Assembly: GCA_963843145.1 (NCBI GenBank)
Contig: CAWJJC010000022.1
Coordinates: 64,001-128,000 of the forward strand
Length of the DNA: 64,000 nt
DNA from: an uncultured delta proteobacterium
GTDB taxonomy: Bacteria > Desulfobacterota > RBG-13-43-22
Reading direction: 5' to 3'
A program made the position numbers and the translations under genes. This document shows positions 42,749 to 63,284 of this stretch, piece after piece; position 1 is the first letter of the stretch; each line of letters opens with the position of its first letter. The notes under the pieces are model-generated. The model had not been told where the DNA came from. It worked only from the letters and a program-made list of their open reading frames with translations, and searched no databases.

Positions 42749-42807
42749 CACTGGGTAAGATGTTCAAAAATTTCGGGCAAGCGAATCCTATAAAAAGGAG
42801 GTTTTAT

Positions 42808-43615: not shown

Positions 43616-43707
43616 TTGATGGCCACTTCGGCTTCCGGCTCTCAGCGGAGATCGGGGAAGCGTTTTAGTCGAACGGATTAATAACTCTATTTTTAGGAGG
43701 TCACACT

Positions 43708-44760: not shown

Positions 44761-44799
44761 GGGTCAATTAGAAACCTAAAGCAAAAGGAGAAAAGCGTT

Positions 44800-45393
44800 A
44801 TGCTGAAAAAATATTGTGGGTTGACTCTGCTGGTGCTCCTGCCTTTGATCCTGGCCTACGGCTGCGGAGAAATGGGTAAAGTGGACCAGGGTCGGGTTAT
44901 TGAATTCGACAAAGCCAAAGGGACGGTCACCCTGATCCAGGATATGAAAGCCGATCCTAAAAACCCGGATTACAACCATCTGCCGCCCGTGACCTATGAA
45001 ATTCCCAAGGATCCGGCTGAGATGGGCCCGGAACCCAAGGCCGGGTGGCGAATGAAGCTGGATGCCAAAGCCAAACAGATCATTATTTTCGATCCGGCCT
45101 CTCAGAATTTCAAAAAAATCGACTATACCCTCATCGACCAGAAGGAAGGGGTGGATGCCGAAAACCCTTTAGTCAAGGATAAGAAATTCCCGCTGGTGGA
45201 AAAGGAGAAGAAGGCCATCACCCTCTACTCCAAGAGACAAAAGCTTTTGACCACCTTCAGCGTCCCGGATGAGTATTTCGCCCTTCCGGACGGCGCCTGG
45301 GATGCGGGCGACGAGGTGCGGATTTATTATAAGGAGACCGGGAAGGCCCGGCGTTTCATGAATATCAGCAAGACCAATATTTATAAGAAATAG
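44800..45393 (+). CDS. Lipoprotein (DUF4881/DVU0148-like)
   Basis: Lipobox LAYGC; DQGRVI, EMGPEPKAG, GDEVRIYYK. Confidence 0.75.
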   Translation: MLKKYCGLTLLVLLPLILAYGCGEMGKVDQGRVIEFDKAKGTVTLIQDMKADPKNPDYNHLPPVTYEIPKDPAEMGPEPKAGWRMKLDAKAKQIIIFDPASQNFKKIDYTLIDQKEGVDAENPLVKDKKFPLVEKEKKAITLYSKRQKLLTTFSVPDEYFALPDGAWDAGDEVRIYYKETGKARRFMNISKTNIYKK

Positions 45394-46547: not shown

Positions 46548-48200
46548 ATGAAAGAGAAGGAATATCGCACTTTATGGTGGAAGATCGTCTTTACCACCCT
46601 GGGTTTCTCTCTGATCCCCTTGTTCGGTCTGGGGTTTACCATCTATTATCAGTTCAGCGTTTCGTACACCGCCAAGGTCATGGAGAACCTGAAAACCCTG
46701 GCGGAAAACCGCCGCAGCGCCATGGACCTTTTTTTTGACGAACGGATCTCCCAGTTGGTCACCATGGCCCATACCCACTCGATCAAGCAATTGGCCGATG
46801 AAAATTACCTCAACAGAGTCTTTAATATCATGCAAACCCGATCCAAATCCTATATCGATATCGGGGTTATTGATCAGGAAGGAAACCATTTGGCCTATGT
46901 GGGTCCCTATCCTGAACTCAAGGGCGTCAATTACCAAAAGGAAGACTGGTTTCAATCGGTCATGTCGGGCGGAGTATACATCAGCGACGTTTTTTTAGGT
47001 TTTCGAAAATACCCCCATTTTATTATTGCCGTGATGACTCGCGAAGGAAATCAGACTTGGATCCTGCGGGCGACCATTAACTCCGAAATCATCGACCAAG
47101 TTGTCCGGGCCGGCCAGATCGGGAAGAAGGGGGATGCCTTCATCGTCAATAAACGGAATATCTTGCAGACCGCACCCCGCTTCAGCGGGGAAATTTTCGG
47201 CCACCCCAAGACCCCGGATTTTTCCCGGGTGATCGAGAATCAAGTGGAGGAACAGTCCCTGGAAGGGGTAAGGGCCCTCTTTGCCGCTACGGTGATCAAT
47301 AATACCAAGTGGGTCCTGGTGATCAAGGAGGATCCCCAAGAACAGCTTACTCCACTATTGCGGGCCCGCTTTCTGGCCGCTTTTCTTTTATTGGCGGGCG
47401 TCTTGCTGATTATCGTCGGGACGATTGTTACTTCCCGCTTGATGATGAAAAGGCTGATTCAAATCGACCGGGAAAAAGCGGTGAGTGAGGATTTGGTCAT
47501 TCAGTCCAGCAAAATGGCAGCCCTGGGAAAAATGGCGGCTGGGATCGCCCACGAGATTAATAATCCCTTAGCCGTCATCGGCGAGAAAGCGGGCTGGATG
47601 AAAGACCTGCTGACTGAAGAAGATATCTCGCGAAGTGAAAATTTCAAGGAGTTTGAAGATTCCATCCGCAAGATTGAGTACCACGTGGAACGGGCTAAAA
47701 AAGTCACCCATCGTCTCTTAGGGTTTGCCCGAAGAATGGAACCGCTTCAGGAAACCGTGGATGTGAACAAAACTTTGGACGAAACCATCGATTTTCTGAA
47801 AAACGAGTCCCGGTATCGCAATATCGACCTTCAAACCGACTTCTTCCCTGATTTGCCGAATATTACCAGTGATTCCTCTCAGTTACAGCAAGTCTTTTTA
47901 AACATCCTGAACAATGCCATCGATGCCATCGGCAAGAATGGGATGGTGATGATAAAAACCAGATTCCTCCCCAAAAATAGTGAACTTTCTGTTGAAATTA
48001 CGGATAATGGCCCGGGAATCCCTAAGGAGATGGTAGCCAAAATTTTTGATCCTTTTTTTACGACCAAGGAAGTGGGCAAGGGAACGGGCCTGGGTCTATC
48101 CATTGTTTTCAGCATACTGGAAAAACTGGGGGGAAGAATCATGGTGGCCAGCGAAGAGGGGAAAGGCACTACCTTTACGATTTATCTTCCGACCAAGTAA
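46548..48200 (+). CDS. Cache-domain NtrB-type sensor histidine kinase
   Basis: [36 protein letters not shown]. Confidence 0.94.
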
Positions 48201-48223
48201 AGTGTTTCCGGGGGAGGTGACCC

Positions 48224-48625
48224 ATGGAGGAATTCAAGATACTGGTGGTAGACGATGAAGACGATTTTCGGGAGACGATTGTCAAACGGCTGCAAAAACG
48301 GAAGATGACGGCCCGGGGGGCGGAAAGCGGGGAAAAAGCGCTCGAACTCATTGAGGCCCAGCCTTTTGATGTGGTGGTTCTAGATGTCAAAATGCCCGGT
48401 CTGGATGGAATAGACACCCTGCGGGAGATCAAAAAGAGAAAACCCCTGATCGAGGTGATTTTGCTTACCGGGCATGCCTCGCTGGAATCGGGCATCGAGG
48501 GGATGAAATTAGGGGCCTACGATTACGTGATGAAACCGGCCAACCTGGAGGAGCTGATTGAAAAAATGCGCCAGGCCTATGAAAAAAAAGTGGTCTCCGA
48601 AGCCCAGGAACTGGAAGGTCGCTAA
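48224..48625 (+). CDS. Single-domain response regulator
   Basis: LVVDDE, DVKMPG, LTGH, MKP. Confidence 0.93.
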   Translation: MEEFKILVVDDEDDFRETIVKRLQKRKMTARGAESGEKALELIEAQPFDVVVLDVKMPGLDGIDTLREIKKRKPLIEVILLTGHASLESGIEGMKLGAYDYVMKPANLEELIEKMRQAYEKKVVSEAQELEGR

Positions 48626-49582: not shown

Positions 49583-50983
49583 TTAGATTGTATCAAAACC
49601 ATCCACTTTGGCAATATTTTTGATATCCATCCCGAATTCCCTGATCCGGTTCCAGACCGTGACCCGCGAAACCCCCAGGATTCGGGCGGCCTCGGTTTGA
49701 TTGCCACTGGATCGCTCCAGGGCTTCCCGCAGGGCTTTCTTTTTCATTTCTTTTCGATCGGAGGGAGCGTTTGGAGTCGAACTATTAAACCGTTTTCCCT
49801 GGAAAATTCCGAGAGGGAGGTGCTGGGGCTGAATCAGGGCTTCCTGACAAGTCACCAGGGCGTATTCAAAGGCGCTTTTTAATTCTCGTACATTTCCCGG
49901 CCATTCGTAGCTTATCAAGGCCTCCATGGTTTCCGGGCTGATCCCCTGGATCGGCTTGCCGGTTTTCAACTGGATTCGCTTAAAGAAAAATTCCGCCAGC
50001 AGGGGAATGTCTTCCACCCGGTCTCGCAATGGGGGTAAGACGATAGGGATGACGTTGATTCGGAAAAACAGATCCTCCCGAAACCCCCCCGAAGCGACGA
50101 GTTGTTTCAAATTTCTGTTTGTGGCCGAGATAATCCGGACATCCACCGGGACCGGCCGGTTTTCGCCCACCCGCTCAATAACTTTTTCCTCCAGGACCCG
50201 AAGCAGTTTCACCTGAGTGGAAAGCGGCAGGTCCCCGATCTCATCAAAAAAAAGGTCCCCCCCGTGGGCCGCTTCAAAGCGTCCTTTGCGACCCTCATAC
50301 GCTCCGGTGTAGGCACCCCGTACGTGTCCAAAAAGTTCGCTTTCCAGTAAAGTTTCGGTCAAAGCGGCGCTGTTGACCTTGACAAAAGGCTTTCGTTTTC
50401 GCGGACCGATCTCATGGAGGGCTTTAGCGGCCAGCTCTTTCCCGGTGCCACTCTCGCCTAAGATAATCACCGGAGCATCGGAACGGGCGGCATTGGTGAT
50501 CATATTTAAGGCCTGTTGCAGGGGAGCAGCGTGGCCCAATATTCCATGAAAGGTGTCTTCTTCCCGCAGTTCACGCCGGAAGGCCTCTATCTGGCTGTCT
50601 TTTTCCACGATCTCGGTCAGGTCGGTCAGTGTTTCCACGGCCCCAATAACCTGGTTTCCGACATCATAAAGAAGGGAAGCGTTTTTTAGGACCGGGACAG
50701 AGCTCCCGTCCTTTCGCTGGATGGCGCAACGCCGCCGACTCAGGCTGCCGAACTCAAAAACCGAACAAAACATCCGCCCCTTTTTGTCGCGCGCTTTTTT
50801 GCAAATATTACACTTCAGGACCGAACAGGACTGTCCCAAGATCCCCTCCCGGGAATAGCCGGTAATTTCTTCAAAGGCCCGATTTACCGAGACGATAAGA
50901 CCCTGTGGGTCGACAATCATCACTCCATCCTGGATCGTGTCCACTACTGTCTTCCAGTAACGACTCAACTCCTGTTCACGCAT
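49583..50983 (-). CDS. Sigma54-dependent activator (PAS-AAA+-Fis HTH) with Cys-rich PAS
   Basis: GESGTGKE, ESELFGH.RGAYTGA, FREDLFFR, WPGNVREL, HTH; PAS contains CSVLKCNIC...FC...C. Confidence 0.95.
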   Translation of the reverse strand: MREQELSRYWKTVVDTIQDGVMIVDPQGLIVSVNRAFEEITGYSREGILGQSCSVLKCNICKKARDKKGRMFCSVFEFGSLSRRRCAIQRKDGSSVPVLKNASLLYDVGNQVIGAVETLTDLTEIVEKDSQIEAFRRELREEDTFHGILGHAAPLQQALNMITNAARSDAPVIILGESGTGKELAAKALHEIGPRKRKPFVKVNSAALTETLLESELFGHVRGAYTGAYEGRKGRFEAAHGGDLFFDEIGDLPLSTQVKLLRVLEEKVIERVGENRPVPVDVRIISATNRNLKQLVASGGFREDLFFRINVIPIVLPPLRDRVEDIPLLAEFFFKRIQLKTGKPIQGISPETMEALISYEWPGNVRELKSAFEYALVTCQEALIQPQHLPLGIFQGKRFNSSTPNAPSDRKEMKKKALREALERSSGNQTEAARILGVSRVTVWNRIREFGMDIKNIAKVDGFDTI

Positions 50984-51174: not shown

Positions 51175-51190
51175 TGGCTGGAATCTTGCT
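51175..51190 (+). promoter_or_regulatory. Sigma54 promoter of the tusA-hdr operon
   Basis: TGGCTGGAATCTTGCT. Confidence 0.82.
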
Positions 51191-51282: not shown

Positions 51283-51537
51283 ATGGCTGAAACAGATTTG
51301 AACAGCATTACCGCGGCCAATACCGTCGATGCCCGGGGGAGCGCTTGCCCCGGACCACTTTTGGAAGCCAAAAAAGGGATCGGCAAGGTGAAGGTGGGAG
51401 AGATCCTGGAGGTCCTGTCCGGTGATCCCGGGACCCGAGATGACATCCCGGCCTGGGCCGACAAGGTCGGACATGAATACCTGGGTCTGCTGGAAGCGAG
51501 CGGCTATACCCGGCTTTTTGTGCGTCGGAAAAAATAA
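51283..51537 (+). CDS. tusA: TusA family sulfurtransferase
   Basis: VDARGSACPGPLL...DIPAWA...GHEYL. Confidence 0.92.
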   Translation: MAETDLNSITAANTVDARGSACPGPLLEAKKGIGKVKVGEILEVLSGDPGTRDDIPAWADKVGHEYLGLLEASGYTRLFVRRKK

Positions 51538-51548
51538 TCGGAGGAGTC

Positions 51549-52016
51549 ATGGCCGTTCAGGAACAGGAAGGGAAAATCCTCATCTTGGCAACCGAACACT
51601 GTGCCTACCCGGGGGCCAATTCCGTGGGACAGGCCCACAGTCCGTATCCGGCCAACACCTATATTCTCCGGGTGCCGGCGCCGGTGCTGTTTCCTGAAAC
51701 GTTTTACTTGAACTGTTTCAAGAAAGGGGTCAGCGGCCTGATTATTATGACCTGCGGGTCCGAATGCCCTTACGAGGGGGCTTACCAGGCCTTGGCCAAG
51801 CGGATCGACCGGGTCTACGCACTGATGAAGGCGCAGGACCTGGACCTTCGCCGGCTCCGGCTCACGGCGATCTGCACGGTCTGCAATCGGGCTTTCCTGA
51901 AGGAGGTCCAGGAGATGAATGCCCTGGTCCAGGAATTAGGACCCCCGGTTTTTGGAAAGGACTATCCGGATAAACGAGGAGGAAGCCATGGAACCCAACC
52001 AAACCCTGACGTTTGA
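51549..52016 (+). CDS. MvhD/FlpD-like hydrogenase iron-sulfur subunit (atypical)
   Basis: CAYPGA..VG...YP...ILRV...CGSECPY...RLRL. The true stop may be 51973 if one T is missing near 51950. Confidence 0.8.
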   Translation: MAVQEQEGKILILATEHCAYPGANSVGQAHSPYPANTYILRVPAPVLFPETFYLNCFKKGVSGLIIMTCGSECPYEGAYQALAKRIDRVYALMKAQDLDLRRLRLTAICTVCNRAFLKEVQEMNALVQELGPPVFGKDYPDKRGGSHGTQPNPDV

Positions 52017-53298
52017 CGCCCTGGTGGTGGGGGGGGGTATCGCCGGCCTGCAGTCGGCGTTGGATCTGGCGGAGCAGGATTTTCGAGTGGCGGTAGTAGA
52101 GAAAGACACCACCATCGGCGGCAAGATGATCCGGCTTTCCAAGGTTTTTCCGACGCTCGATTGCGCCAGTTGCATTACCACCCCCAAGATGGCCGCGGCG
52201 GCCCATCATGAGCGGATTACGCTATTCACCTATTGTGAGCTGAACGCGCTGGATCGGACTCCGGAAGGGTTGACGGCTACCATCACTCAGAAACCCCGTT
52301 ATGTGGAGGCCCATAAGTGCATCGGCTGTCGGCAGTGCGAGTACACTTGTCCGGTTTATGTGCGGGATGAAGAGCAGGGTGGGTTTTCCGCCAGGAAAGC
52401 CATCTATATTCCTTTCTCCAACGCCATCCCTCAGACGGCCCTGCTGGATGTGGAAAATTGTTTGCTGTGCGGGAAATGTGAAAAGATCTGTCCGACACAG
52501 GCCGTGAATTTTTTTCAGGAACCCCGGGTATTCCGGGTAGAGGCCAAAACGGCTGTTTTGGCCACCGGGTTTGAACCGATCCCGCTCGCCGACAAGGTCC
52601 AGTACGGCAAGGGAGAGATCCCTAATGTCATTACCGCGTTGCAGATGGAGCGGCTCCTGGCCCCCCATGGGCCCTACGCCCGGGTCCTGCGTCCTTCGGA
52701 CGGAATGGAGCCGGATTCCATCGCTTTTATTCAATGCGTCGGCTCCCGGGACCAGAGTCTGGGTGTTCCCTACTGTTCCCGGGTCTGTTGCATGTACGCG
52801 ATCAAGCAGGCCATGCTCCTTTCCGGTGCCCTGCCTTTGGCGGATATTATTATTTATTACATAGACATCCGGGCCTTTGGAAAAGGCTATGAACAGTTCT
52901 TCCAAAATGCGCAGGCCATGGGGATCCAGTTTGTCAGAGCCAAAGTGGCCACCCTGAGCGAAGGCGAAAGCGGACGGGTCACGGTCCGCTACGAAGCCCA
53001 GGATGGAGAGGGGGTGACCACGGCGGATCATGATCTGGTGGTGCTCTCCCTGGGGATGCTTCCGGGGTGGAACCCCGAGGGCCTCTGTGCCGTGTCTCGG
53101 GATGCAGACGGTTTTATAAAGACCATTCAACCCAAAATCGCCCCGACCTTGACGGACCTGGAGGGTGTTCTGGTGACCGGAGCGGCAGCCGGTCCTAAGG
53201 ACATTGTGGACACCATAGCGGAGTCCGGCGCCGCTTCCATGGAGGCCGCGAAGTACCTGACGGTCCGAGCCGCTTCCCCCAAGGTCCAGACCGTTTGA
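51988..53298 (+). CDS. HdrA-like flavoprotein 1 (no N-terminal domain, inserted ferredoxin)
   Basis: GGGIAG, KVFPTLDCASC, CIGCRQC..CP, CLLCGKC..CP, QCVGSRD, YCSRVCC, GPKDI. Confidence 0.92.
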   Translation: MEPNQTLTFDALVVGGGIAGLQSALDLAEQDFRVAVVEKDTTIGGKMIRLSKVFPTLDCASCITTPKMAAAAHHERITLFTYCELNALDRTPEGLTATITQKPRYVEAHKCIGCRQCEYTCPVYVRDEEQGGFSARKAIYIPFSNAIPQTALLDVENCLLCGKCEKICPTQAVNFFQEPRVFRVEAKTAVLATGFEPIPLADKVQYGKGEIPNVITALQMERLLAPHGPYARVLRPSDGMEPDSIAFIQCVGSRDQSLGVPYCSRVCCMYAIKQAMLLSGALPLADIIIYYIDIRAFGKGYEQFFQNAQAMGIQFVRAKVATLSEGESGRVTVRYEAQDGEGVTTADHDLVVLSLGMLPGWNPEGLCAVSRDADGFIKTIQPKIAPTLTDLEGVLVTGAAAGPKDIVDTIAESGAASMEAAKYLTVRAASPKVQTV

Positions 53299-53338
53299 AA
53301 ACCGGCCGATTAAATCCAGTGGATCGGGAGATTGGATG

Positions 53339-55249
53339 ATGATGGAAGAAACGAAAGTGATCAACGCCACAGGGGAAAAGATCGGGGTTTACCTTTGTCA
53401 TTGCGGAGGGAACATTTCCGATCAGGTGGCCGTGGAAAAGGTCCGGGAGCGGGCCGAGAAGATCCCCGGTGTGGCCGTGGTCCGCACCAACCCTTTCATG
53501 TGTTCGGATCCCGGGCAGGAACTGATCGCCGAAGACCTGAAAATGGGAACCGTCGACCGGGTGGTGGTGGCCTCCTGCGCTCCCAGTCTTCATGAAACTA
53601 CTTTTCGGGGCGTCATGGTCCGGGCGGGCGCAAATCCCTACCTCTATGAACACGCCAACATCCGGGAGCAGGTGAGCTGGGTCCACCACGGCGACGCGGC
53701 CACGGATAAAGCGACCCGGCTGGTGGCTGCCGCGGTGGGCAAGGCCAAAAACCTAAAACCGCTGAAACCCTTGCGGGTCGAGGCCAGAAGGCATGCCACC
53801 GTGATCGGCGGGGGAGTGGCGGGGCTTCGGGCGGCCAAAGACCTGGCCGTCAGGGGATTTAAGGTGGCCCTAGTGGAACGGTCTCCTTTTTTGGGGGGGC
53901 GGTCGGCCTTATTGGACCGCATAGCCCCCACGGGAGAACCGGCCGCCGATCTGGTCTCCAACCTGGCCCGGGAGGTCCTGAGCGATCCGGCCGTCAGTCT
54001 GTACACCTGTTCCCAGGTAATCGGATTTGAAGGGACCATCGGTAATTTCAATCTTCGGATCAGGACCGCGCCTCCGGACTCGGAAGCGGACCACGAAAAA
54101 ATCCGACGACTGAGTACCTCCGGAGCCGGATTGAGAGAATTTGTCCCTTTGGTCGGGATGTATCCGGGCGGCATTCCTGAGCGGACCGAAGATCGCACGA
54201 TCGAAACCGGGGTAGTCATCCTGGCCACGGGTTTTAAACCGTACACTCCCCGCCAGGGAGAGTACGGACAGGGAGTCTTCCCGGAGAGCCTGACCCTTCC
54301 CCAGTTTATTCTGGAGACGGCCCATCAAAAAACCAATGGGGGGGTTCTGGAGTTGGGAGGACGGCCGATTCGAAGCCTGGCCCTGATCCACTGTGTAGGC
54401 AGCCGGCAGATCCCCGGTATTCATGAACCGGATAAAACGGGGGTCCTTAATGAATATTGCTCCCGCACCTGTTGCACCGCCACCATACAGGCGGCGCTCC
54501 AGGTTCGTAAAAACTATCCGGGAACGCGGGTCTATGAATTCTATCGGGATATTCGCACCTATGGCCGGGGCCAGGAGGAGCTTTATCGGCAAGCCTCCAA
54601 CAGTGGAGTCGTCTTCCTGCGCTTCCAGGCGGAAGAACCCCCCCAAGTGTCTCGATCGATCGACGGCAGCGATTTTCCTCTTCGGATCATGGTCAAGGAT
54701 ACCCTGACCTTTGGAGAAGAGGTGGAAGTTCCGGTGGATTTGTTGGTGCTGGCGGTGGGCATGGAGCCGAATCCCGTGCCCGACCTGGTGGAGATGATGA
54801 AACTTCCGGTAGGTGTCGACCGATTTCTATTGGAGGTGCATCCCAAGCTGCGCCCGGTGGAGCTTTCCGTAGCCGGAATCCTGCTGGCCGGTACCTGCCA
54901 AGCCCCCATGGATATTGGAGAAGCCTGTGCCGGAGCGGGTGCGGCAGCGGTCAAGGCCTCGGGTATCCTTTCCCGGGGCTACGTGGAGTTGGATCCCTTC
55001 GTGGCCGAAGTGGATATTCATAAGTGCCGAGGTAGGGGCGCCTGTGTGGAGGCCTGTTTGAATCCGGGTGCGCTGACGATGGTGGAGACCGAAGTCGAAG
55101 GGCGGCAGGTCCGGCAAGCCCGGGTGAATCCGGCCCTCTGCCGGGGTTGCGGCGCCTGCGTGGCGGTTTGTCCGGAGAACGCCATTCAGGTCAACGGGTG
55201 GACGCTGGGACAATACGAGGAAATGGTGGATATGATTCTGATCCGATGA
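53339..55249 (+). CDS. HdrA-like flavoprotein 2 (N-terminal domain, C-terminal ferredoxin)
   Basis: GVYLCHCGGNI, VVASCAP, NIREQVSWVH, GGGVAG, HCVGSR, YCSRTCC, HPKLRPV, CRGCGACVAVCP. Confidence 0.92.
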   Translation: MMEETKVINATGEKIGVYLCHCGGNISDQVAVEKVRERAEKIPGVAVVRTNPFMCSDPGQELIAEDLKMGTVDRVVVASCAPSLHETTFRGVMVRAGANPYLYEHANIREQVSWVHHGDAATDKATRLVAAAVGKAKNLKPLKPLRVEARRHATVIGGGVAGLRAAKDLAVRGFKVALVERSPFLGGRSALLDRIAPTGEPAADLVSNLAREVLSDPAVSLYTCSQVIGFEGTIGNFNLRIRTAPPDSEADHEKIRRLSTSGAGLREFVPLVGMYPGGIPERTEDRTIETGVVILATGFKPYTPRQGEYGQGVFPESLTLPQFILETAHQKTNGGVLELGGRPIRSLALIHCVGSRQIPGIHEPDKTGVLNEYCSRTCCTATIQAALQVRKNYPGTRVYEFYRDIRTYGRGQEELYRQASNSGVVFLRFQAEEPPQVSRSIDGSDFPLRIMVKDTLTFGEEVEVPVDLLVLAVGMEPNPVPDLVEMMKLPVGVDRFLLEVHPKLRPVELSVAGILLAGTCQAPMDIGEACAGAGAAAVKASGILSRGYVELDPFVAEVDIHKCRGRGACVEACLNPGALTMVETEVEGRQVRQARVNPALCRGCGACVAVCPENAIQVNGWTLGQYEEMVDMILIR

Positions 55250-55315
55250 ACTGATCTGCTGATTTTAAATTCCGGTCTAAGCCAACGGGGAAGAAAGGAG
55301 AGGGAAAAGATTCCA

Positions 55316-55651
55316 ATGACAGCAGCCGAAACGGACAAGGAAGCACGGAATAAGCTTCGATTGGCCCGAAAAGGGATAATCGCGGGGGTTGCGGCCCGGG
55401 TAAAGGAGCAGCAGCAGGCCGTCAAGGCCCTGAAGCAGTCCCTGCAGGCGGGCGGTAAAACGGTACCGGAACTGGCTCAGGACACCGGGCTGCCCGCGGC
55501 TGAGGTCTTGTGGTACCTGGCGGCTATGAAAAAGTATGGTGAAATCGCTGAAGGGGCCAAAGCAGGAAGCTATTTTCGCTATACGCTGGCGCCCGCGCTT
55601 CCCGTTGAAGGGGCCGTAGACCAGGAGATTTCAGGAGGGGCCGCGAAATGA
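55316..55651 (+). CDS. Small winged-helix protein
   Basis: KTVPELAQDTGL..AEVLWYL..MKKYG.I.E....YFRY. Confidence 0.75.
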   Translation: MTAAETDKEARNKLRLARKGIIAGVAARVKEQQQAVKALKQSLQAGGKTVPELAQDTGLPAAEVLWYLAAMKKYGEIAEGAKAGSYFRYTLAPALPVEGAVDQEISGGAAK

Positions 55652-55950
55652 TCACGGTGAATACGTCGTTCGCGGAAGAGTTGGCCCGTTTTGGCGTGGA
55701 TACCGCCCTCGATTGTTATCATTGCGGGACCTGTGCCGCCATTTGCCCGTTGATTTACGAGCACTTTCCACGAAAGATGATTCGCTATATCCAGTTGGGC
55801 GCCAGGGAAAGGATTCTGGAAAACCCGATCGATCTGTGGCGTTGTCTGCACTGCGGACTTTGCACCCAAACCTGCCCGCGGAAAGCCGATCCCGGAGAGC
55901 TGATTCTGGGCTTAAAACGTTTTGTAGTGGACCACTGGAGGAATCATTAG
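55648..55950 (+). CDS. HdrC-like 2x[4Fe-4S] protein
   Basis: CYHCGTCAAICP, PRKMIR, WRCLHCGLCTQTCP. Confidence 0.9.
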   Translation: MITVNTSFAEELARFGVDTALDCYHCGTCAAICPLIYEHFPRKMIRYIQLGARERILENPIDLWRCLHCGLCTQTCPRKADPGELILGLKRFVVDHWRNH

Positions 55951-55951
55951 C

Positions 55952-56884
55952 ATGTATCACCCCAAGGATATCATCGAGATTCTGGCCGCGAATGTACGTC
56001 ATACCCGAAGCCCCTTCGGCACCCCGAAATTTTTGGTGAACAACTGGTGGAAAGAACTGGGGCTCAGAAAGCAGGGGGAGTCCCTGTTGTTTACGGGCCT
56101 GATGTACCAGTTTGTCCCTTATATTGAAAAGACCACCAGTTACCTGGAAAAATTTGAAGATCGGCCACTGGCCGAATGGCTGCGGTTTGGGCGGTATCAG
56201 CCTAAGCGATTGGCCGGCCTGGGGCTGGCCATGCTCATCCCCGGTGCGGCCAAAAAGAGCGCCCAGACCACTCTCCGGAATATTGCCCGCATCCTCACCC
56301 AATCCGGAGTGGACTTTTATTATCAACCGCGACTGGACGAATACAGTGGGATCCTGCTTTACGATCTGGGTGACCAGGAGAGCTTTGTGGCGCATGCCCG
56401 GTATGTGGCCGGCCGGCTAAAAAGAGCGGGAGTGCGAAAGATCATCACCGTGGACCCTCACACTACTTATGCCTTGAAGGTCCTCTATCCTCAATATACC
56501 GGGGAGCATTTTGAAGTGAGGACCTATTTTGAACTGGCCAAGGGTTCTCCCCAAAATGATCAAGGCCGGGTTACCCTCCATGATCCCTGTTTTTACGGGC
56601 GATATCTGGAATTGTCCGCTGCGCCGCGAAAGGCCCTGGAAAGGATAGGCATCGAATGCCTGGAGATCCGGAATTCCGGCACCTTCACCCAATGCTGCGG
56701 CGGACCGGCGGAGTCCATCTCTCCCCATCTGGCCCGGGAGGTTATGGAGCGCAGGGTGGAAGAGTTGAAAGCTACCGGTGCCCCTTTGGTGGCCATGTGC
56801 CCCATCTGCCTGGGCAACTTGAGAAAGTCCGGGGCGGAGGTGGAGGACCTGTCGACTATCCTGGCCCGCGGGCTTCCGGCTTGA
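55952..56884 (+). CDS. CCG-domain (HdrB/HdrD-like) Fe-S protein
   Basis: HDPCFYGR, CCGGP, CPIC; first CCG repeat degenerate (FTGLM, YSG, TVDPHT). Confidence 0.85.
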   Translation: MYHPKDIIEILAANVRHTRSPFGTPKFLVNNWWKELGLRKQGESLLFTGLMYQFVPYIEKTTSYLEKFEDRPLAEWLRFGRYQPKRLAGLGLAMLIPGAAKKSAQTTLRNIARILTQSGVDFYYQPRLDEYSGILLYDLGDQESFVAHARYVAGRLKRAGVRKIITVDPHTTYALKVLYPQYTGEHFEVRTYFELAKGSPQNDQGRVTLHDPCFYGRYLELSAAPRKALERIGIECLEIRNSGTFTQCCGGPAESISPHLAREVMERRVEELKATGAPLVAMCPICLGNLRKSGAEVEDLSTILARGLPA

Positions 56885-56968
56885 GGGTAGGCAAATTCTG
56901 GATTGGCTAATGTCTTTGAACGCTATTTTTCATAAAACCCATTTCTAAGCAAAGAAAGGAGCAGTATC

Positions 56969-57343
56969 ATGACAGAAAAAGAAGAAAAGATCCTGGTGAT
57001 CGGCACCCATGCCTCAGACAATCCGGAGAAGGCGGCCATGCCCTTTGTCATGGCCAACGCGGCCCTGGCCATGGATGTCAAGGCCATGGTGGTGTTGCAG
57101 GGGGAAGGCGTCTATCTGGCCAAGAAAGGGTATATGGAAAACCTGGTCAAGCCGGGGGGCTTCAGCCCTTTCACCAAACTGATGGCCGACTTCCTGGAAC
57201 TGGGGGGGTCCCTCAGAGTTTGCGTGCCCTGCATCAAAGAGAGGAACATAGAAGAGTCCGATCTGATCGCAGGGGCACAGACCACAGCCGCCGGGCGCCT
57301 GATTACCGAAGCGCTCCAGGCGGACGCCGTTTTCACCTATTAA
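56969..57343 (+). CDS. DsrE family protein
   Basis: PEKAAMPFVMANAALAMD, LQGEGV, CVPCIKER. Confidence 0.88.
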   Translation: MTEKEEKILVIGTHASDNPEKAAMPFVMANAALAMDVKAMVVLQGEGVYLAKKGYMENLVKPGGFSPFTKLMADFLELGGSLRVCVPCIKERNIEESDLIAGAQTTAAGRLITEALQADAVFTY

Positions 57344-57546
57344 AACCTTTTATACGAATTTCCTACAGGCTGAGTTCCTCGGGTATAAGGGGCGATCCGT
57401 TCGCCCCGCCTCCGGGATCTTTCATTCTTGTCCCGAAGGTGAGCCCGGCTCGCTAATTAAGGAATTCTAATTGATTCGGTTGATAAAAGGAGGTTTAAAA
57501 TGGAAGGAATCTCATTTCCAGACATCCCCAGCGTATTTCCGATCTT

Positions 57547-58200
57547 GTGACTCTAATAGAAAAAGGCGCCCGGGTGACTTGTCAATCCTCCTTTGCGGTC
57601 ATCCCGGTGGATTTTCGGCACCGCCGGAATCCCTATCAGGCCCATGTATTCCTGGTCTATTTTTCCGGAATGATGGACGGAGAACCCTACACCTTCCGCA
57701 AATGCTATGCTCGGGGGTGCTCCCACAACCTCTGCCCCCATGTCTCCCAGGCCGTTCTGATTGCCAATCGTTATCTCCAGCGGGATTATCGGTTACTGGA
57801 AAAAGCGGGCCTGGCGGTAGATCCCCGGTTGTTTACCCTGGAGGATATGATCGTCAAGTTTGAAGGGTATCGAGAGGAACATCCTCCCAACCAGACGATC
57901 GAGGATTACCTCCATCTGGCCCAAGAAGGGAATGAGATTTTCGTGGAAGTGGAACTGGAGTATGTCCCGGCGGTGGAACATTTCGCTAATTACCAAAACA
58001 AGCAGACCTTCCTGGTTGCTGGTTTTACCATCACCTATAGGGGAAAACCCAATTATTTGGAACGCTGCCTGGCCTGTTTTGCCTCTGAAAAGGAAAAGGA
58101 AGAAAAATCTCCAATGGTCTTGGTGGCCAATGCCCGACTGGAGGAGCTCTATCAGGTTTTCGAACAAGGCGCGATTCACTTGGTCAAACGATATTTTTAG
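57547..58200 (+). CDS. Hypothetical protein with Cys/His cluster
   Basis: KCYARGCSHNLCPH and RCLAC motifs; start uncertain. Confidence 0.75.
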   Translation: MTLIEKGARVTCQSSFAVIPVDFRHRRNPYQAHVFLVYFSGMMDGEPYTFRKCYARGCSHNLCPHVSQAVLIANRYLQRDYRLLEKAGLAVDPRLFTLEDMIVKFEGYREEHPPNQTIEDYLHLAQEGNEIFVEVELEYVPAVEHFANYQNKQTFLVAGFTITYRGKPNYLERCLACFASEKEKEEKSPMVLVANARLEELYQVFEQGAIHLVKRYF

Positions 58201-58331
58201 GGGAGTATTCTGATTTCGTCGCAAATCTTAAGAAGGATCTCAATCAAAAGCGGGCTAGCAGCCGCCGGGGCGGTTTCGGCGTTCTGGTTTCCAGACCCAG
58301 TTACGGTTTGTGGCGGTCCCGAGGAGGAGTC

Positions 58332-58853
58332 ATGGAACTACAAGGGAAGAAGGTCATAATCTTTGCCGAAGAGATGTACAACGAGTTTGAACTCTGGTAC
58401 CCTTATTATCGGTTGCTGGAAGCCGGGGCGGAGGTGGCCCTGGTCGGATCCGGGAGTGCCCCCGTTTATAAGAGCAAATTAGGACTTCCGGTCAGCGTCC
58501 AGACGAGCGCCGACCAGGTTGATCCGAAAAATTTCAACGGCCTGATCATCCCGGGCGGGTATGCCCCGGATCATATGCGGCGCTACCCGGCGATGGTCGG
58601 CCTGGTGAAAGAGATCTTTGGCGCCGGGAAGGTGGTGGCGGCCATCTGCCACGCCGGTTGGATGCTGGCTTCCGCCGAGGTGGTCCGGGGGAAGAAGTTG
58701 ACCTCTTTCTTTGCCATCAAAGACGACCTGATTCACGCCGGGGCGGAATGGGTCGATCAGGAGGTGGTGGTGGACGGCAACCTGATCACTAGCCGGAAAC
58801 CGGACGACCTGCCGGCTTTCATGCGGGCCGTGATTGCCGCCCTGAAGGGTTAG
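58332..58853 (+). CDS. PfpI/DJ-1 family protein
   Basis: EFELWYP, IPGGYAPD, AICHAG, DGNLITSR.PDDLPAF. Confidence 0.93.
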   Translation: MELQGKKVIIFAEEMYNEFELWYPYYRLLEAGAEVALVGSGSAPVYKSKLGLPVSVQTSADQVDPKNFNGLIIPGGYAPDHMRRYPAMVGLVKEIFGAGKVVAAICHAGWMLASAEVVRGKKLTSFFAIKDDLIHAGAEWVDQEVVVDGNLITSRKPDDLPAFMRAVIAALKG

Positions 58854-58898
58854 TATGTAAATAAAGTCGAACACCGCTTTCGGGGAGTTGTTCTTGCC

Positions 58899-58985
58899 GT
58901 CATGCCGGACCTGATCCGGCATCCAGGGTATTCGAAGCTCAAAGGGCTCTGGATTCCGGATCTCGCTTCTCTCGTCCGGAATGAA
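58899..58985. repeat. REP/RPE-like palindromic element
   Basis: GTCATGCCGGACCTGATCCGGCATCCAG ... CTGGATTCCGGA...TCCGGAATGA. Confidence 0.75.
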
Positions 58986-59231
58986 GACCTTTTTCCTTGC
59001 GTAGCGAATCCTGTCAACCTGGGTAGGTTCATACAAATATTTCCTGGACCCACTATAGATCGAACTCTCCTTTTTCTGGATAGAACAGCAGCCTGGGGGG
59101 GTGGGTTACGAGTCGGCGTGAGAACTCGAAGGCAAATCAAGGCCGAAAATATGACCCTGGATGGCCTGGCCATTCGATACGGGCAGTTATAGAGAGGATG
59201 CCGGGAGATGGACGATCCTCCCGGCCAAAAG

Positions 59232-59972
59232 TTATTTTAGCAGGTTTCCGCGAACCCCGATCACTCTTTCCGCCAGGGGGATATTCTTCCCCGCCTTTTC
59301 CATGGCCTGCTTGACGATCCAGGGGAGTCCCGAGCAGCAGGGGACCTCCATGACCACGGTGGTCACGCTGTTGATCTGGGCCGTGTTAAAAATATCCGTA
59401 AACTTCTGAATATATTCCTGGACATCGTCAAACTTGGGGCAGCCCATCATGACCACTTTGCCCTGGAGAAAATCCTGGTGAAAGTTGGGATACGCCAGGG
59501 GGGCGCAGTCGGCTACCACTAAAAGGTCGGCGTTCTTGAGAAAGGGCGCTGTCGGGGGCACCAGCTTGATCTGCACCGGCCAATGGCTGAGGGCCGAACC
59601 CGAAGCGGTTTGGGCCTTCGGCTGGTTGGCTTCCTGACAGGAGGAGACAGGGGCAAAGGTCTGCAGCGTGGTGGAGGGGCAGCCGCAGGGCAGTTTGGTT
59701 TCAGGCTGGGGAACAGCCGGGGGCCTTATAGCCTTCAAATGCTCCTCGACGGCGTGTTCGTCGAAATCCTCGGACTCCCGTTCGATGATGTGCAAGGCGT
59801 CGTTGGGGCATTCCCCCAGGCAGGCCCCCAGACCGTCGCAATATTTTTCAGCCGTCAAGGTGGCCTTCCCGTCTATGATCTGGATGGCCCCTTCGGCACA
59901 GGAAGGGACGCACAGGCCGCAGCCGTCGCAGCGTTCGGGGTCGATTTCAATGATTTTGCGTTTAATTATCAT
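59232..59972 (-). CDS. 4Fe-4S ferredoxin-domain protein of hcp neighbourhoods
   Basis: CDGCGLCVPSC.EGA, CDGLGACLGECP, CGCP, HWPVQI, GCPKFD, MEVPCC. Confidence 0.88.
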   Translation of the reverse strand: MIIKRKIIEIDPERCDGCGLCVPSCAEGAIQIIDGKATLTAEKYCDGLGACLGECPNDALHIIERESEDFDEHAVEEHLKAIRPPAVPQPETKLPCGCPSTTLQTFAPVSSCQEANQPKAQTASGSALSHWPVQIKLVPPTAPFLKNADLLVVADCAPLAYPNFHQDFLQGKVVMMGCPKFDDVQEYIQKFTDIFNTAQINSVTTVVMEVPCCSGLPWIVKQAMEKAGKNIPLAERVIGVRGNLLK

Positions 59973-60000
59973 TAGTTTTTCCTTTGGATAAAAAAGGTTC

Positions 60001-60064
60001 ACCCACCCCCCAACGTTCGGCTGAGCTCACGTCGAAGCCCCCCTTCCGTCAAGGGAGGGGGAGC
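60001..60064. repeat. REP-like element
   Basis: CCCACCCCC...TTCGGCTGAGCTCACGTCGAA...CCCCCTTCC-GTCAA-GGGAGGGGG. Confidence 0.5.
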
Positions 60065-60088
60065 AGGAAGCGTTTGAGGTTAGGGGTT

Positions 60089-60822
60089 CTACGAAGTTTT
60101 TAAGAACACCTTAATGGCCAATTCCCGGCCGCTGTCGGTTAAAAAAGATCGGTCAATGATCGCGGCCAGCCGTTCCGGGGATGAGGCCTTTTCTTTCTGA
60201 TTTTCTTCCAGGTTGACGATCAGGTCCGAGTCGTAGATCGCTTTGAAGTTGGTGGTTTCCTTCTCCCGGGGATGATGGTGATGGCCGACTATATCGCAGA
60301 CTTCCTCGATCAGCTCTTCCCGGGCGCCCAGTTTGGTCAGGATCTGTCGCGCAATCGGCGGGCCTTCTTCCTCCTGGTAGCGGGCGGCCGTGCTGTGGTA
60401 TTTCCTTTCCGCCTCATGGATGCCGATGTCGTGCAGATAGGCGGCTGAGAGGATCACCGCCGGGTTCCCTTTTTCTTTTCTGGCCAACTCCTCGGCATAG
60501 CGGGCCACCCGGGTGGCATGGCCGATCCGTTTGAAATCTGTGGTGAAGTAGCGCTTCATTTCAATGGCCACCCGGTCCTTTAACAGATCCTCTTTTTGGG
60601 CCATTAGTTCCGGGGGCAGCCCCCCAGGCACTGCTCGGCATGAGGGCAGTAAGAGGCGCAGCCGAAATCCATTTGGGGATTGATGATCCGCTTCCCGCAT
60701 TTCTTGCAGAGTCGGGTGGTGTCGTCTTTAAAGAACTCGAGCTCGGCGCCGCAATGGGGGCATTGGGTCTCGAAAATTGACCCGGGCTTCCAGTAGCGGC
60801 TGTCCTGTCCAGGGCATTTCAT
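60089..60822 (-). CDS. HD-domain phosphohydrolase with N-terminal Cys-rich zinc ribbon; 1-nt frameshift at about 60620-60625
   Basis: MKCPGQD...CPHC...CKKC...CASYCPHAEQCLG joins LPPELMAQ...RIGHA...LHDIG...HHH...DSD if one G is added. Confidence 0.88.
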
Positions 60823-60872
60823 AAAAAATCCTTTTATCCTTGAATTCGGGTTAATCCGTGATCGGGGTCCAT

Positions 60873-60900
60873 TAGGGGCGGGTTTTGAACCCGCCCCTAC
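60873..60900. repeat. GTAG-type REP / hairpin after hcp
   Basis: TAGGGGCGGGTT-TTG-AACCCGCCCCTAC. Confidence 0.65.
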
Positions 60901-60928
60901 GACAATCATTTATGAAAACAGGATTTTT

Positions 60929-62557
60929 TTAACCCAATATCGCCTTGAGATCCTCGTCCGGTGTGGTGATGGGCATGACGTTGAACGTCTTTACCAACAC
61001 ATCCAGGACATTGGGGGTGATGAAGGCCGGTAGGGAGGGCCCCAGCCGAATGTTCTTGATCCCCAGGTAAAACAAGGTCAACAAAATGGCTACGGCCTTC
61101 TGCTCATACCAGGAAAGGATCATGGACAAGGGTAGGTCATTGACCCCCACGTTAAAGGCCTTGGACAAGGCCACAGCGATCTGGATGGCCGAATAGGCAT
61201 CATTGCACTGCCCCACGTCCAGGAGGCGCGGGATCCCGCCGATATCTCCCAATTCTTTGTCAAAAAACCGGAACTTGCCGCAGGCCAGGGTGAGGATGAC
61301 CGAATCTTTGGGCGCTTTTTCCACAAACTCGGTGTAGTAGTTTCGGCCCGGTTTGGCCCCGTCGCAACCGGCTACGAGGAAGAAGTGACTGATCGCCTTG
61401 TTCTTGACCGCCTCGATCACCTGGCCGGCCACGCTCATCACGGTGTTCCGGCCGAACCCGACGGTGACCGTTTTCCCGTTGCTGTCTTCCGCAAATCCAG
61501 GCAGGGCCAAAGCCTTTTCGATAACCGGAGCAAAGTCTTTCCCGGCAATATGGGCGACGCCGGGGAAGCCCACCAATCCCGTGGTGAAAATATTGGCCTG
61601 GTAGGATTCCTTGGGCTTCTGAATGCAGTTGGTGGTCATCAGGATGGCCCCGGGAAACTCGCCGAACTCTTTGTGCTGATTCTGCCAGGCCGTCCCATAA
61701 TGGCCATAGAAATGGGCATACTTTTTCAATGCAGGATAACCGTGGGTGGGCAGCATCTCGCCGTGGGTATAAACATTAATCCCTTTGCCTTCGGTCTGTT
61801 TCAGGATCAGTTCCAGGTCTTTCAGGTCATGGCCGGAAACCAGGATGGCCTTGCCCTTTTTATGCCCTAGGGGAACCTTGGTTGGTACGGGATGTCCGTA
61901 GGTTTCCGTATTGGCTGCATCCAGGATTTCCATGGCTTTTAAATTGGCCTCGCCGCATTTCAAGGTCAGGCCCACCCAGTCGTCCAAGGTCAGGTCTTTG
62001 TTCAGGGCGGCGGCCAATCCTTCATGGATAAAGGCATAGACGGACTCATCTTCCTTGCCCAAGATCTGGGCATGGTCAGCGTAAGCGGCGACCCCCTTAA
62101 TCCCGAAAGTGACGGTCCAAATCAGCGCGTGAATATCTCTATCCGTAGTGGTATCTGATTGAATTCCAACCTTTTCTCCCTGGGCGATCATTCCCTCCAG
62201 GGTATCGGCCAGGATTAAATCCGCCGGTCCCTTCGGAAAATCCACTTTTCCGCCGGCCGCTTTCACCTTGGCTTTCAATTTTTCCCGCAGGGCCACGGTC
62301 TCTTTCAGTAAAGGAGCGAACCGCTCGGCGTCAAAATCGACATTGGTCAAAGTCGAAAACAAGGCCTTGACGGTAAAAATATTGGCCTCCGGGTCGCTGA
62401 TGCCCACCTTCCGGCCTTCCACTGCCACCTGGGACAAGCCCCGCATGGCATACACGACCAGATCCTGCAGGGCGGCTACTTCGGGTTGCTTTCCGCAGAC
62501 CCCGACTTTGGTACAGCCTTCCCCTTTGGCGGTTTGTTCACATTGATAACAAAACAT
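60929..62557 (-). CDS. hcp: Hybrid cluster protein (hydroxylamine/NO reductase)
   Basis: MFCYQCEQTA..GC...GVCGK, SGHDL, THGEML, GCDG, LACGK, GQCND, SWYEQKA. Confidence 0.97.
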   Translation of the reverse strand: MFCYQCEQTAKGEGCTKVGVCGKQPEVAALQDLVVYAMRGLSQVAVEGRKVGISDPEANIFTVKALFSTLTNVDFDAERFAPLLKETVALREKLKAKVKAAGGKVDFPKGPADLILADTLEGMIAQGEKVGIQSDTTTDRDIHALIWTVTFGIKGVAAYADHAQILGKEDESVYAFIHEGLAAALNKDLTLDDWVGLTLKCGEANLKAMEILDAANTETYGHPVPTKVPLGHKKGKAILVSGHDLKDLELILKQTEGKGINVYTHGEMLPTHGYPALKKYAHFYGHYGTAWQNQHKEFGEFPGAILMTTNCIQKPKESYQANIFTTGLVGFPGVAHIAGKDFAPVIEKALALPGFAEDSNGKTVTVGFGRNTVMSVAGQVIEAVKNKAISHFFLVAGCDGAKPGRNYYTEFVEKAPKDSVILTLACGKFRFFDKELGDIGGIPRLLDVGQCNDAYSAIQIAVALSKAFNVGVNDLPLSMILSWYEQKAVAILLTLFYLGIKNIRLGPSLPAFITPNVLDVLVKTFNVMPITTPDEDLKAILG

Positions 62558-62666
62558 GATCGATCTCCTTTCTTTGATTAAAGTTAGGTTCAATTAATTC
62601 GGAACCAACAGGGCCCGTTTAAACGTCATTTACGTTTAATAATAAGGCGACAACCGCCGAATTGCC

Positions 62667-62833: not shown

Positions 62834-62867
62834 AATCAACATATAAATGTTTATTTATATGTTGATT
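62834..62867. promoter_or_regulatory. ArsR/SmtB-type operator
   Basis: Perfect 15-bp inverted repeat AATCAACATATAAAT-GTTT-ATTTATATGTTGATT upstream of arsR. Confidence 0.8.
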
Positions 62868-62927
62868 ATTTCAACGGTTGATTTCAAGAATCAGGAATAC
62901 CTAATGATCAATAAGAGCAGAAACAAA

Positions 62928-63284
62928 ATGAGCGGGGAAGAGGCTGAGGCTTACCCGGAGGAGATAGGAAACCAAGAGGAAGGGGAACAGTCCCTCTCCA
63001 CGGTGGCTTTTTTAGCCAAAAGCCTATCGGATGAAAACCGTTTGCGGGTGCTCCTCAGTCTGCGCCAGGGCCGGCTTTCGGTATCCAGCCTGGTGGAGGG
63101 CTTACAATTGTCCCAACCGCTGATTTCACATCATTTAAAGGAATTAAAAAGGTCGCTTCTAGTCAAGGTCGAGCGCAATGGGCCATTTATCTATTACGAA
63201 CTGGCCGATAAAAGAATCCTTCAGATCATGAAAGACCTGGGGACCGTGGCCGGGGAATTACTGGCCAACCGTCGAACTTTTTAG
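62928..63284 (+). CDS. ArsR/SmtB family transcriptional regulator
   Basis: KSLSDENRLRVL, LSQPLISHHLKELK, VERNG..IYY. Alternative start at 62904. Confidence 0.92.
   Translation: MSGEEAEAYPEEIGNQEEGEQSLSTVAFLAKSLSDENRLRVLLSLRQGRLSVSSLVEGLQLSQPLISHHLKELKRSLLVKVERNGPFIYYELADKRILQIMKDLGTVAGELLANRRTF

Follow-up and report, generated by a model that had tools for sequence, protein, structure and literature searches.

In this work, we describe a conserved gene unit found in a 64,000-nucleotide (nt) stretch of DNA from an uncultured delta proteobacterium (GenBank assembly GCA_963843145.1, contig CAWJJC010000022.1, positions 64,001 to 128,000), which we refer to as "the window". The unit joins the genes of two sulfur-carrier families, tusA and dsrE, with genes for Hdr-type subunits, i.e. 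an MvhD protein, two HdrA proteins, an HdrC-like ferredoxin and a protein with a CCG motif (hereafter "the CCG protein"), and is preceded by a divergent gene for a sigma-54-dependent activator. The gene order is almost invariant across the related loci, so that the genes form one conserved unit and not a chance neighbourhood; the unit fails the defining features of the HdrABC, QmoABC, sHdr and Flx-Hdr systems, yet it has modules of all of them. We propose, with moderate confidence, that the unit is inducible and encodes a soluble complex of the Hdr type for the reduction of sulfane sulfur carried on TusA and DsrE, possibly with electron bifurcation.

The conservation of the unit has been established by a pattern scan with one genome per species, in which 208 genomes with a relative of the CCG protein were found, i.e. 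the unit is spread over at least 208 species, and the best 80 loci were kept; the presence of each gene was then counted by tblastn with the window proteins, considering only the loci that are long enough for the gene. The long HdrA (65/65 loci), the short HdrA (60/60), the HdrC-like protein (73/73) and a small winged-helix protein (72/72) are found in every locus counted, MvhD in all but one (58 of 59), and the activator is divergent in 45 of 50. The first-pass annotation of this DNA had named a lack of conservation of tusA/dsrE with the cluster as a refutation of its reading; this does not apply, as tusA and dsrE are kept with the Hdr genes, in 58/58 and 58/60 loci, respectively. Beyond these genes the flanks are variable: among the clustered open reading frames (ORFs) of 81 loci, the next commonest neighbours, an MTHFR pair and a further HdrA/MvhD set, occur in 13 loci. 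Database homologues of the CCG protein number more than 1000, the best 120 of which are 62-92% identical and about 310 amino acids (aa) long. Judged by the record titles of the best 80 loci, the carriers are mostly Desulfobacterales, including Desulfococcaceae and the cultivated Desulfosarcina variabilis (locus L072), and otherwise Desulfatiglandales, Desulfatirhabdiaceae and a few metagenome-assembled genomes of Syntrophobacteraceae or Desulfobulbus.

The features of the unit are listed in Table 1, with family assignments from Pfam and NCBIfam profile scans of the proteins of the window ORFs.

Table 1. Features of the tusA-dsrE unit, in window coordinates, with the basis of each assignment.
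Feature	Position	Strand	Basis
Sigma-54-dependent activator (PAS, AAA+, Fis-type helix-turn-helix)	49583-50983	-	Pfam Sigma54_activat 6e-67, PAS_9 1.3e-15, HTH_8 2.7e-11
Promoter of -24/-12, sigma-54 type	51175-51190	+	TGGCTG-N5-TTGCT, 108 nt 5' of tusA
tusA, 84 aa	51283-51537	+	PF01206, E 1.6e-20
mvhD (MvhD/FlpD family), [2Fe-2S]-type electron-transfer subunit	51549-52016	+	PF02662, E 3.2e-17
hdrA-short, 437 aa	51985-53298	+	NCBIfam HdrA2 model positions 133-561, E 5e-136
hdrA-long, 637 aa	53336-55249	+	NCBIfam HdrA2 positions 1-233, HdrA model 324-644; E 1e-142
Small winged-helix protein, 111 aa	55316-55651	+	No Pfam/NCBIfam match; predicted structure
hdrC-like ferredoxin, 100 aa	55648-55950	+	Fer4_8 3e-10; eight Cys for 2x[4Fe-4S]
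CCG protein, 310 aa	55952-56884	+	PF02754, E 3.4e-11, residues 207-291 only
dsrE, 124 aa	56969-57343	+	PF02635, E 1.4e-17
orf217, 217 aa, Cys-rich	57547-58200	+	No Pfam/NCBIfam match
Terminator-like hairpin 3' of orf217, weak	58263-58281	+	Such sites: 9 found vs 10.6 expected in shuffled sequence

The first-pass annotation had placed a single operon of eight genes (tusA-mvhD-hdrA-hdrA-wHTH-hdrC-hdrB/D-dsrE) at 51283-57343: all eight genes have been recovered there on the forward strand by Pfam and NCBIfam, but the extent had been drawn too short, as the sigma-54/PAS activator, its promoter and orf217 had been overlooked. The nine genes of the forward strand are closely spaced over 51283-58200, the divergent activator being the tenth gene. 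From tusA to dsrE, neighbouring genes overlap or are separated by 1 to 84 nt, with the stop codon of the winged-helix gene overlapping the start of hdrC (ATGA), while orf217 follows dsrE after 203 nt; since the gaps are short and some genes overlap, a single transcript is plausible. The start of the short hdrA is set at ATG 51985 and not at TTG 51952, because stop codons align upstream in 22 orthologous loci. The earlier statement that no hydrogenase, Flx, Apr or lipoate-binding gene adjoins the cluster is borne out within the annotation of the window.

The two HdrA proteins divide between them the domains that accompany the flavin core. The short HdrA consists of a FAD/thioredoxin-reductase-like core, starting from GGGIAG, and an inserted 2x[4Fe-4S] ferredoxin with two CxxCxxCxxxC motifs (eight Cys), and it has neither an N-terminal domain nor a C-terminal ferredoxin; the long HdrA has an N-terminal domain with four Cys (C21, C23, C56 and C81), its own FAD core with GGGVAG and a C-terminal ferredoxin, while a Cys-free linker of 41 residues replaces the inserted ferredoxin, with no Cys between residues 225 and 353. 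The cofactor Cys of the HdrA proteins are invariant in 41-62 orthologues, MvhD has six invariant Cys, and across the unit all the expected cofactor Cys are invariant (41-81 orthologues); the complementarity of the two HdrA proteins, already noted in the first-pass annotation, is thus borne out by both the domain maps and the conservation of the Cys residues. Because the accessory domains are split over two proteins, the pair would form a heterodimer that has two flavins but each accessory domain only once, as an asymmetric counterpart to the HdrA homodimer of the methanogens.

Both HdrA proteins are closest to solved methanogen HdrA structures (PDB entries 5odc, 8rvu and 9sfi, E 1e-107 to 1e-114): the short HdrA matches residues 145-561 of the HdrA in 9sfi_A (E 2e-114) and the long HdrA matches 5odc_A (E 5.7e-113), while their matches to sHdrA (6tjr_A) have E values of 1e-28 and 1.6e-34. 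In the NCBIfam scan, the model NF040770 matches the two proteins at 455-477 bits. By phmmer, they reach 364-386 bits against methanogen HdrA; against the QmoA/B-like pair that is linked with apr on contig C14 of the same genome, they reach 219 and 112 bits by tblastn (27-33% identity), and the bits of the two programs are not strictly comparable. On these scores, we class both HdrA proteins as the methanogen, bifurcating type rather than as sHdrA or as the Qmo of the genome itself. The subunits also look unlike canonical Qmo or sHdr, as earlier proposed, with the HdrA scores favouring methanogen HdrA and the qmoC score being below its cut-off.

The split into a short and a long HdrA is not unique to the operon, as there are about ten further HdrA-like loci in the genome (on C12, C20, C22:305647-308688, C27, C28 and C32). 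Several of these encode single proteins of 925-1476 aa, i.e. fusions that join the short and the long parts in the order of the two genes of the operon. On contig C14, at C14:53502-55285, the aprA matches run over several frames in pieces that have no internal stops, which suggests assembly frameshifts or a broken gene, and the QmoB beside aprA is likewise fragmented. Two described systems have been considered as possible counterparts of the pair or of the cluster: the HdrL of Desulfobacterium autotrophicum has been rejected, being a fusion of the HdrA/glutamate-synthase type with an NADH site, as described in the consulted part of PMC2702500, and the hdrA1 locus of Desulfococcus multivorans is an unlikely one, with a dsrE that is located 1.4 Mbp from hdrA1 according to the consulted part of PMC5109826.

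The HdrC-like protein has eight invariant Cys in two CxxCxxCxxxC motifs and no membrane part; in NCBIfam, it is matched best by the N-terminus of QmoC (77.8 bits, below the cut-off of 300, at model positions 3-94 of 360), and HdrC matches it at E 1.6e-13, all NCBIfam HdrC scores being below cut-off. In the CCG protein, the only conserved Cys across 81 sequences are C213, C248-C249, C283 and C286, i.e. one CCG motif, which would bind one noncubane [4Fe-4S] cluster, while HdrB has two CCG motifs for two such clusters. The N-terminal 200 residues are free of Cys but strongly conserved (H148, D168-P-H170 and YDLGDQ). DsrK, TmcB and HmcF likewise combine a single CCG motif with an N-terminal half that has no Cys. 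A membrane-anchored HdrD-like paralogue of the genome (C6:88114-90183) repeats the order "DPH ... HDPC ... CCGG ... CPxC" of the CCG protein. The earlier call of this gene as hdrB/D therefore stands in its HdrD-like part, which agrees with the single motif, the Cys-free N-terminal half and the paralogue, and falls in its HdrB part, which calls for two motifs.

Because of the single CCG motif and the paralogue-like pattern, the HdrC-like protein and the CCG protein together look like a split module of the HdrD/DsrK type, the CCG protein being the likely catalytic subunit. Its N-terminal half may be a degenerate CCG domain, judging by the likeness by eye of DPH to CPxC and by the paralogue on C6; the two halves of the protein appear unrelated by hhalign (probability 0.3%). 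The only solved chain that matches the protein by sequence is 9ojn_A, in the C-terminal half (E 5.8e-9), its matches to the TmcB and HmcF models of NCBIfam are weak (E 0.002-0.005), and it shares 29% identity over 198 residues with the likely DsrK of the genome (C6, about 7090-7674). No longer, fused CCG forms were found at E <= 1e-20, which is weak evidence. The predicted complex of the CCG and HdrC-like proteins with TusA as the partner scored 0.00 against a mark of 0.32, a result that weighs neither way.

The two carriers at either end of the eight-gene core have been confirmed as members of sulfur-carrier families, with motifs that are invariant in the orthologues. TusA has its C22 in a CPGP motif that is invariant in 61 sequences, and scores 73.2 bits against PF01206 (cut-off 28.6), 42 bits against the NCBIfam TusA model and 31.9 bits against the YedF models, the latter two being under their cut-offs. 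DsrE scores 64.4 bits against PF02635 (cut-off 22.7) and its C85 and C88, in a VCVPC (CxxC) motif, are invariant in 69 sequences; its sole PDB match is 3mc3_A (E 1.3e-9), where C85 aligns with a Cys, and we assign the protein to a putative DsrE3-like subgroup. In the sHdr pathway, as described in the consulted part of PMC11094781, TusA receives sulfur from DsrE3 trimers and has interactions with the sHdr proteins, which is the closest precedent for TusA and DsrE that feed an Hdr-like enzyme.

The activator has the properties of a sigma-54 enhancer-binding protein: an AAA+ interaction domain, a C-terminal helix-turn-helix and a -24/-12 promoter at its target. The promoter pattern TGG[CT]-N8-TGC is found within 350 nt 5' of tusA in 42 of 59 loci, where 0.08 occurrences are expected per 350 nt, and the operon is probably inducible via sigma-54 control. 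An insertion in the PAS domain carries five Cys (C53, C58, C61, C73 and C86), with conservation of 0.96-1.0 across 46 sequences; such a Cys-rich domain may sense redox state or sulfane sulfur by way of an Fe-S cluster or of thiols, it matched no described counterpart, and it is presumably comparable to NreB or FisR. Just 5' of tusA, some loci have a second small TusA-like ORF without the Cys of CPxP (L056:2754-3122, and about 200 nt 5' of tusA in L025, L035, L047 and L049). The distance from the sigma-54 promoter to tusA is then about 330-350 nt in many loci.

Two protein families of no known function are also part of the unit. The 111-aa protein, which has no Cys, is modelled by AlphaFold2 (AF2) with a pLDDT of 85 as a basic helix of 42 residues followed by a winged helix; the best Foldseek match of the model is the persulfide sensor SqrR (6o8k, E 9.8e-4), followed by other ArsR/SmtB proteins, while DsrD, which has a winged helix but is not known to bind DNA, is found at rank 46. 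A language-model search also leads to ArsR-like clusters. The structure prediction and the ArsR/SmtB matches back the earlier call of a winged helix-turn-helix; the fold match to SqrR stands beside the lack of a Pfam HTH_5 or HTH_20 match and of any Cys in the protein. The second family, orf217, conserves C53-x4-C58-x4-C63-x-H65 and C174-x2-C177 in 39 sequences, and its AF2 model (pLDDT 77) has two tandem modules, each with three beta-strands and a long helix. No convincing fold relatives have been found: the best Foldseek match has an E value of 0.023, and the top one of 48,161 chains compared with VIA-align reaches a Z of 5.1 along 62 residues. A Pfam scan of 18 distant relatives returned no family, and a search of the protein atlas gave no usable match; only 111 representatives of the family exist among 1.84 billion proteins.

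Taken together as a mechanism, the divergent activator, through its Cys-rich PAS sensor, would switch on the sigma-54-dependent operon. The HdrA heterodimer, with two FAD sites and one copy of each accessory Fe-S domain, would handle the electrons, with MvhD as the entry or the exit wire that connects to a further partner, and the HdrC-like 2x[4Fe-4S] ferredoxin would carry electrons from the HdrA flavins to the single-CCG subunit. TusA (Cys22) and the DsrE3-like protein (Cys85) would deliver sulfane sulfur, as a Cys-persulfide or a thiosulfonate, to the CCG site, where the S-S bond would be reduced, releasing H2S and the regenerated carrier, and this exergonic reduction could be coupled at the HdrA flavin to the reduction of ferredoxin, i.e. 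bifurcation. Within sulfate reducers, the complex would use or dispose of zero-valent sulfur, polysulfide or sulfur derived from thiosulfate. Four points favour the reductive direction: the methanogen type of the HdrA proteins, the lack of a linked lipoate-binding gene, the resemblance of the CCG and HdrC-like proteins to a module of the reductive HdrD/DsrK kind, and the anaerobic, dsrA-bearing hosts.

Several points weigh against this reductive proposal. The gene content, the conserved cofactor ligands, the conservation of the operon and its sigma-54 promoter are observed, and complex formation, the substrate, the reductive direction, bifurcation and the role are all drawn from gene content; the unit encodes no electron donor module (hydrogenase, Fdh, Flx or NADH-binding subunit), and the flank clustering of 81 loci found no rhodanese or YedE-type sulfur importer in the conserved core. 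The orf217 gene is present in 43 of 57 loci and absent in 14 of 57, among which are L001 and L002 as the nearest relatives, and the winged-helix protein may be either a subunit or a local regulator. The distribution is patchy: at a threshold of E <= 1e-70, a CCG orthologue occurs in 15 of 401 evenly sampled genomes of the phylum and in 4 of 13 of the bacterium's own family, and because of this patchiness the cluster is not a core step of sulfate reduction. Finally, the variable neighbours (peroxiredoxin, OsmC, thioredoxin reductase, Usp and DJ-1) would be as compatible with a role in stress as with one in energy metabolism.

In the same phylum sample, dsrA is found in 14 of the 15 carriers of the CCG orthologue, the exception being a genome that is 90% complete, compared with 204 of the 401 genomes overall. 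Since related genomes are not independent, we read this co-occurrence as a pattern that is consistent with the proposal.

The chemistry proposed above could also serve stress or repair: the PAS domain would sense oxidants or reactive sulfur, and the complex would remove persulfides and polysulfides, or re-reduce thiols, after exposure to O2 or to a burst of sulfide/S0. We consider this different role unlikely, although the five conserved Cys of the sensor, the inducibility that follows from sigma-54 control, the patchy distribution and the variable neighbours (DJ-1/PfpI, hybrid-cluster protein, OsmC, a peroxiredoxin split by a stop codon, thioredoxin reductase and Usp) all speak for it; such neighbours are conserved in few loci at most, and a complex that carries two FAD and some ten Fe-S clusters would be a costly detoxifier. 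The split peroxiredoxin (AhpC/TSA), at L047:11386-12108 and 3' of extra DsrE and DrsE_2 genes, is interrupted by an in-frame stop and is a candidate selenoprotein.

A more ambitious version of the reductive proposal, to which we also give only a slim likelihood, is a flavin-based, bifurcating protein-persulfide reductase, in which electrons from a mid-potential donor would enter at MvhD and the asymmetric HdrA heterodimer would split them to ferredoxin and to the single-cluster CCG site, the place where zero-valent sulfur bound to TusA/DsrE would be reduced, with orf217 and the winged-helix protein as new subunits and the PAS activator as a new sulfane-sulfur or redox sensor. If this is true, the intracellular reduction of S0 or polysulfide would be energy-conserving in sulfate reducers of the Desulfosarcina type, and it would supply a missing enzyme for their reported handling of zero-valent sulfur. 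Such handling has been reported as disulfide disproportionation by the partners of methane-oxidising archaea.

The likeness of the CCG protein to DsrK opens another possibility, that of a soluble recycling of DsrC, where the HdrC-like and CCG proteins would be a split, membrane-free DsrK that reduces the trisulfide or disulfide of DsrC with low-potential electrons from the HdrA pair, while TusA and DsrE would only shuttle released or incoming sulfur. The pattern shared with the HdrD-like paralogue, in which a single CCG motif follows an N-terminal half without Cys, the resemblance to DsrK, TmcB and HmcF with the weak matches to the last two models, and the dsrA of 14 of the 15 carriers are in line with it, and DsrC reportedly interacts with FlxABCD-HdrABC in Desulfovibrio (PMC10504309). 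We nevertheless find this distinctly unlikely: the conserved unit has no dsrC, the CCG protein resembles the likely DsrK of the genome only at the low identity given above, about 190 of the 204 dsrA-positive genomes in the sample have no cluster, and the strict linkage is with TusA and DsrE and not with Dsr genes.

In an oxidative, sHdr-like direction, the sulfane sulfur on TusA and DsrE would instead be oxidised, e.g. in sulfide oxidation or in the oxidative branch of disproportionation. The combination of TusA, a DsrE3-type protein and Hdr-like proteins, with a small gene between hdrA and hdrC, recalls the shdr clusters, in part as set out in excerpts of PMC11094781, and a wide capacity for sulfur oxidation is proposed for sulfate reducers in the consulted part of PMC13293266. 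The unit has no lbpA-like gene, and this lack of a gene for the lipoate-binding protein argues against the known oxidative route; moreover, there is one HdrC-like protein and one CCG subunit with a single motif, where sHdr has two pairs, and the HdrA proteins are far from sHdrA 6tjr and close to methanogen HdrA (E 1e-113), so that we hold an oxidative role to be improbable. The handling of selenium, i.e. a YedF/TusA-like carrier and a DsrE-like protein that deliver selenium species to the Hdr module for reduction in selenoprotein-rich hosts, is very improbable: to the below-cut-off YedF matches of TusA can be added weak matches of the CCG, HdrC-like and HdrA proteins to NCBIfam NF045663 ("diclust_near_Sec"), but all such scores are far under the cut-offs, the unit has no sel genes, and in none of the 80 loci does a selenocysteine codon align with a conserved Cys.

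The groups of Desulfosarcina/Desulfococcus and Desulfatiglans dominate the turnover of carbon and sulfur in anoxic sediments, and the fate of their internal zero-valent sulfur, polysulfide and thiosulfate is poorly known. An inducible operon that wires sulfur carriers to a bifurcation-type Hdr module would be a concrete and testable enzyme for such chemistry, and would extend the partnership of TusA/DsrE with Hdr from aerobic sulfur oxidisers to strict anaerobes; experiments are feasible, as the cluster is found in the cultivated Desulfosarcina variabilis.

The surroundings of the unit in the window contain further genes. About 6 kb 5', at 42745-45393 (+), there are genes for a Usp, a TauE/SafE sulfite-exporter-like protein and a DUF4881 protein, and next to them, at 46548-48625, genes for a dCache histidine kinase and for a response regulator; in other loci, conservation with the operon does not extend to these genes. 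In Dissulfuribacter, a TauE/SafE exporter and a transmembrane protein that occurs together with it were more abundant during thiosulfate disproportionation. On the 3' side, 58308-62593 encodes a DJ-1/PfpI protein (+) and, on the reverse strand, a ferredoxin-domain protein of 256 aa, an HD-domain protein and a hybrid-cluster protein, and an ArsR-type gene follows at 62847-63284; these neighbours are common only to the two closest relatives. Farther away, a corrinoid methyltransferase set at 13124-17645 (+) consists of a URO-D/MtaA-like protein, a pterin-binding and B12-binding protein and a RACo reductive activator, and similar MtaB, B12 and RACo genes are located 3' of the operon in Desulfosarcina variabilis (L072). 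A PIN-domain (VapC-like) protein and an Rv0623-like antitoxin, at 25712-26409 (-), are an ordinary toxin-antitoxin pair.

Lastly, we compare the unit with the known systems. No description of a tusA-mvhD-hdrA-hdrA-hdrC-CCG-dsrE unit was found in the literature that was searched; the supplements of PMC10504309 and PMC11094781, which lie outside this search, could list such clusters. FlxABCD-HdrABC differs from the operon in its flx genes, none of which were annotated by Pfam in the flanks of the cluster within the window or in six related loci. The methanogen HdrABC-MvhAGD and the HdrA2B2C2 of Methanosarcina (NF040770) share with the operon the best HdrA matches, MvhD and a 2x[4Fe-4S] ferredoxin of the HdrC type; in the operon, however, HdrA is split into two genes, HdrC has only 100 aa, there is one CCG motif instead of two, TusA and DsrE are attached, and there is no hydrogenase, Fdh or chemistry of CoM/CoB.

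With QmoABC and QmoAB-HdrCB, the operon shares a short and a long HdrA-like protein next to an HdrC-like ferredoxin, for which the N-terminus of QmoC is the best match; variants of the QmoAB-HdrCB type are reported in Gram-positive and some deltaproteobacterial sulfate reducers (PMC10504309, consulted in part). Unlike QmoABC, the operon has no membrane haem-b domain, is not located beside aprBA, as the aprA and the QmoA/B-like pair of the genome are on the separate contig C14, and has its MvhD as a separate gene. The systems of the DsrK/HdrD type (DsrMKJOP, Tmc, Hmc and the membrane HdrD-like proteins) have the same single CCG motif after a Cys-free DPH domain, together with a ferredoxin module that supplies the electrons, whereas in the operon the ferredoxin has a gene of its own, a membrane partner is lacking, the identity to the paralogues is 25-33% and the module is coupled with an HdrA pair.

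The sHdr-LbpA system is alike in tying an Hdr-like Fe-S/flavin enzyme to TusA and to a DsrE3-like protein with the same active Cys. The sHdr clusters also have a small gene between hdrA and hdrC, at the place of the winged-helix gene of the operon, and two HdrB/HdrC pairs, whereas the operon has one HdrC-like protein and one single-motif CCG subunit. The operon has no lipoate-binding gene, neither in the annotation of the window nor in the flanks of the 81 loci, the scope of this statement being the loci themselves and not a genome-wide search for LbpA; it has two large HdrA proteins of the methanogen type with MvhD, in contrast to one short sHdrA, and it is found under sigma-54 control in anaerobic sulfate reducers.

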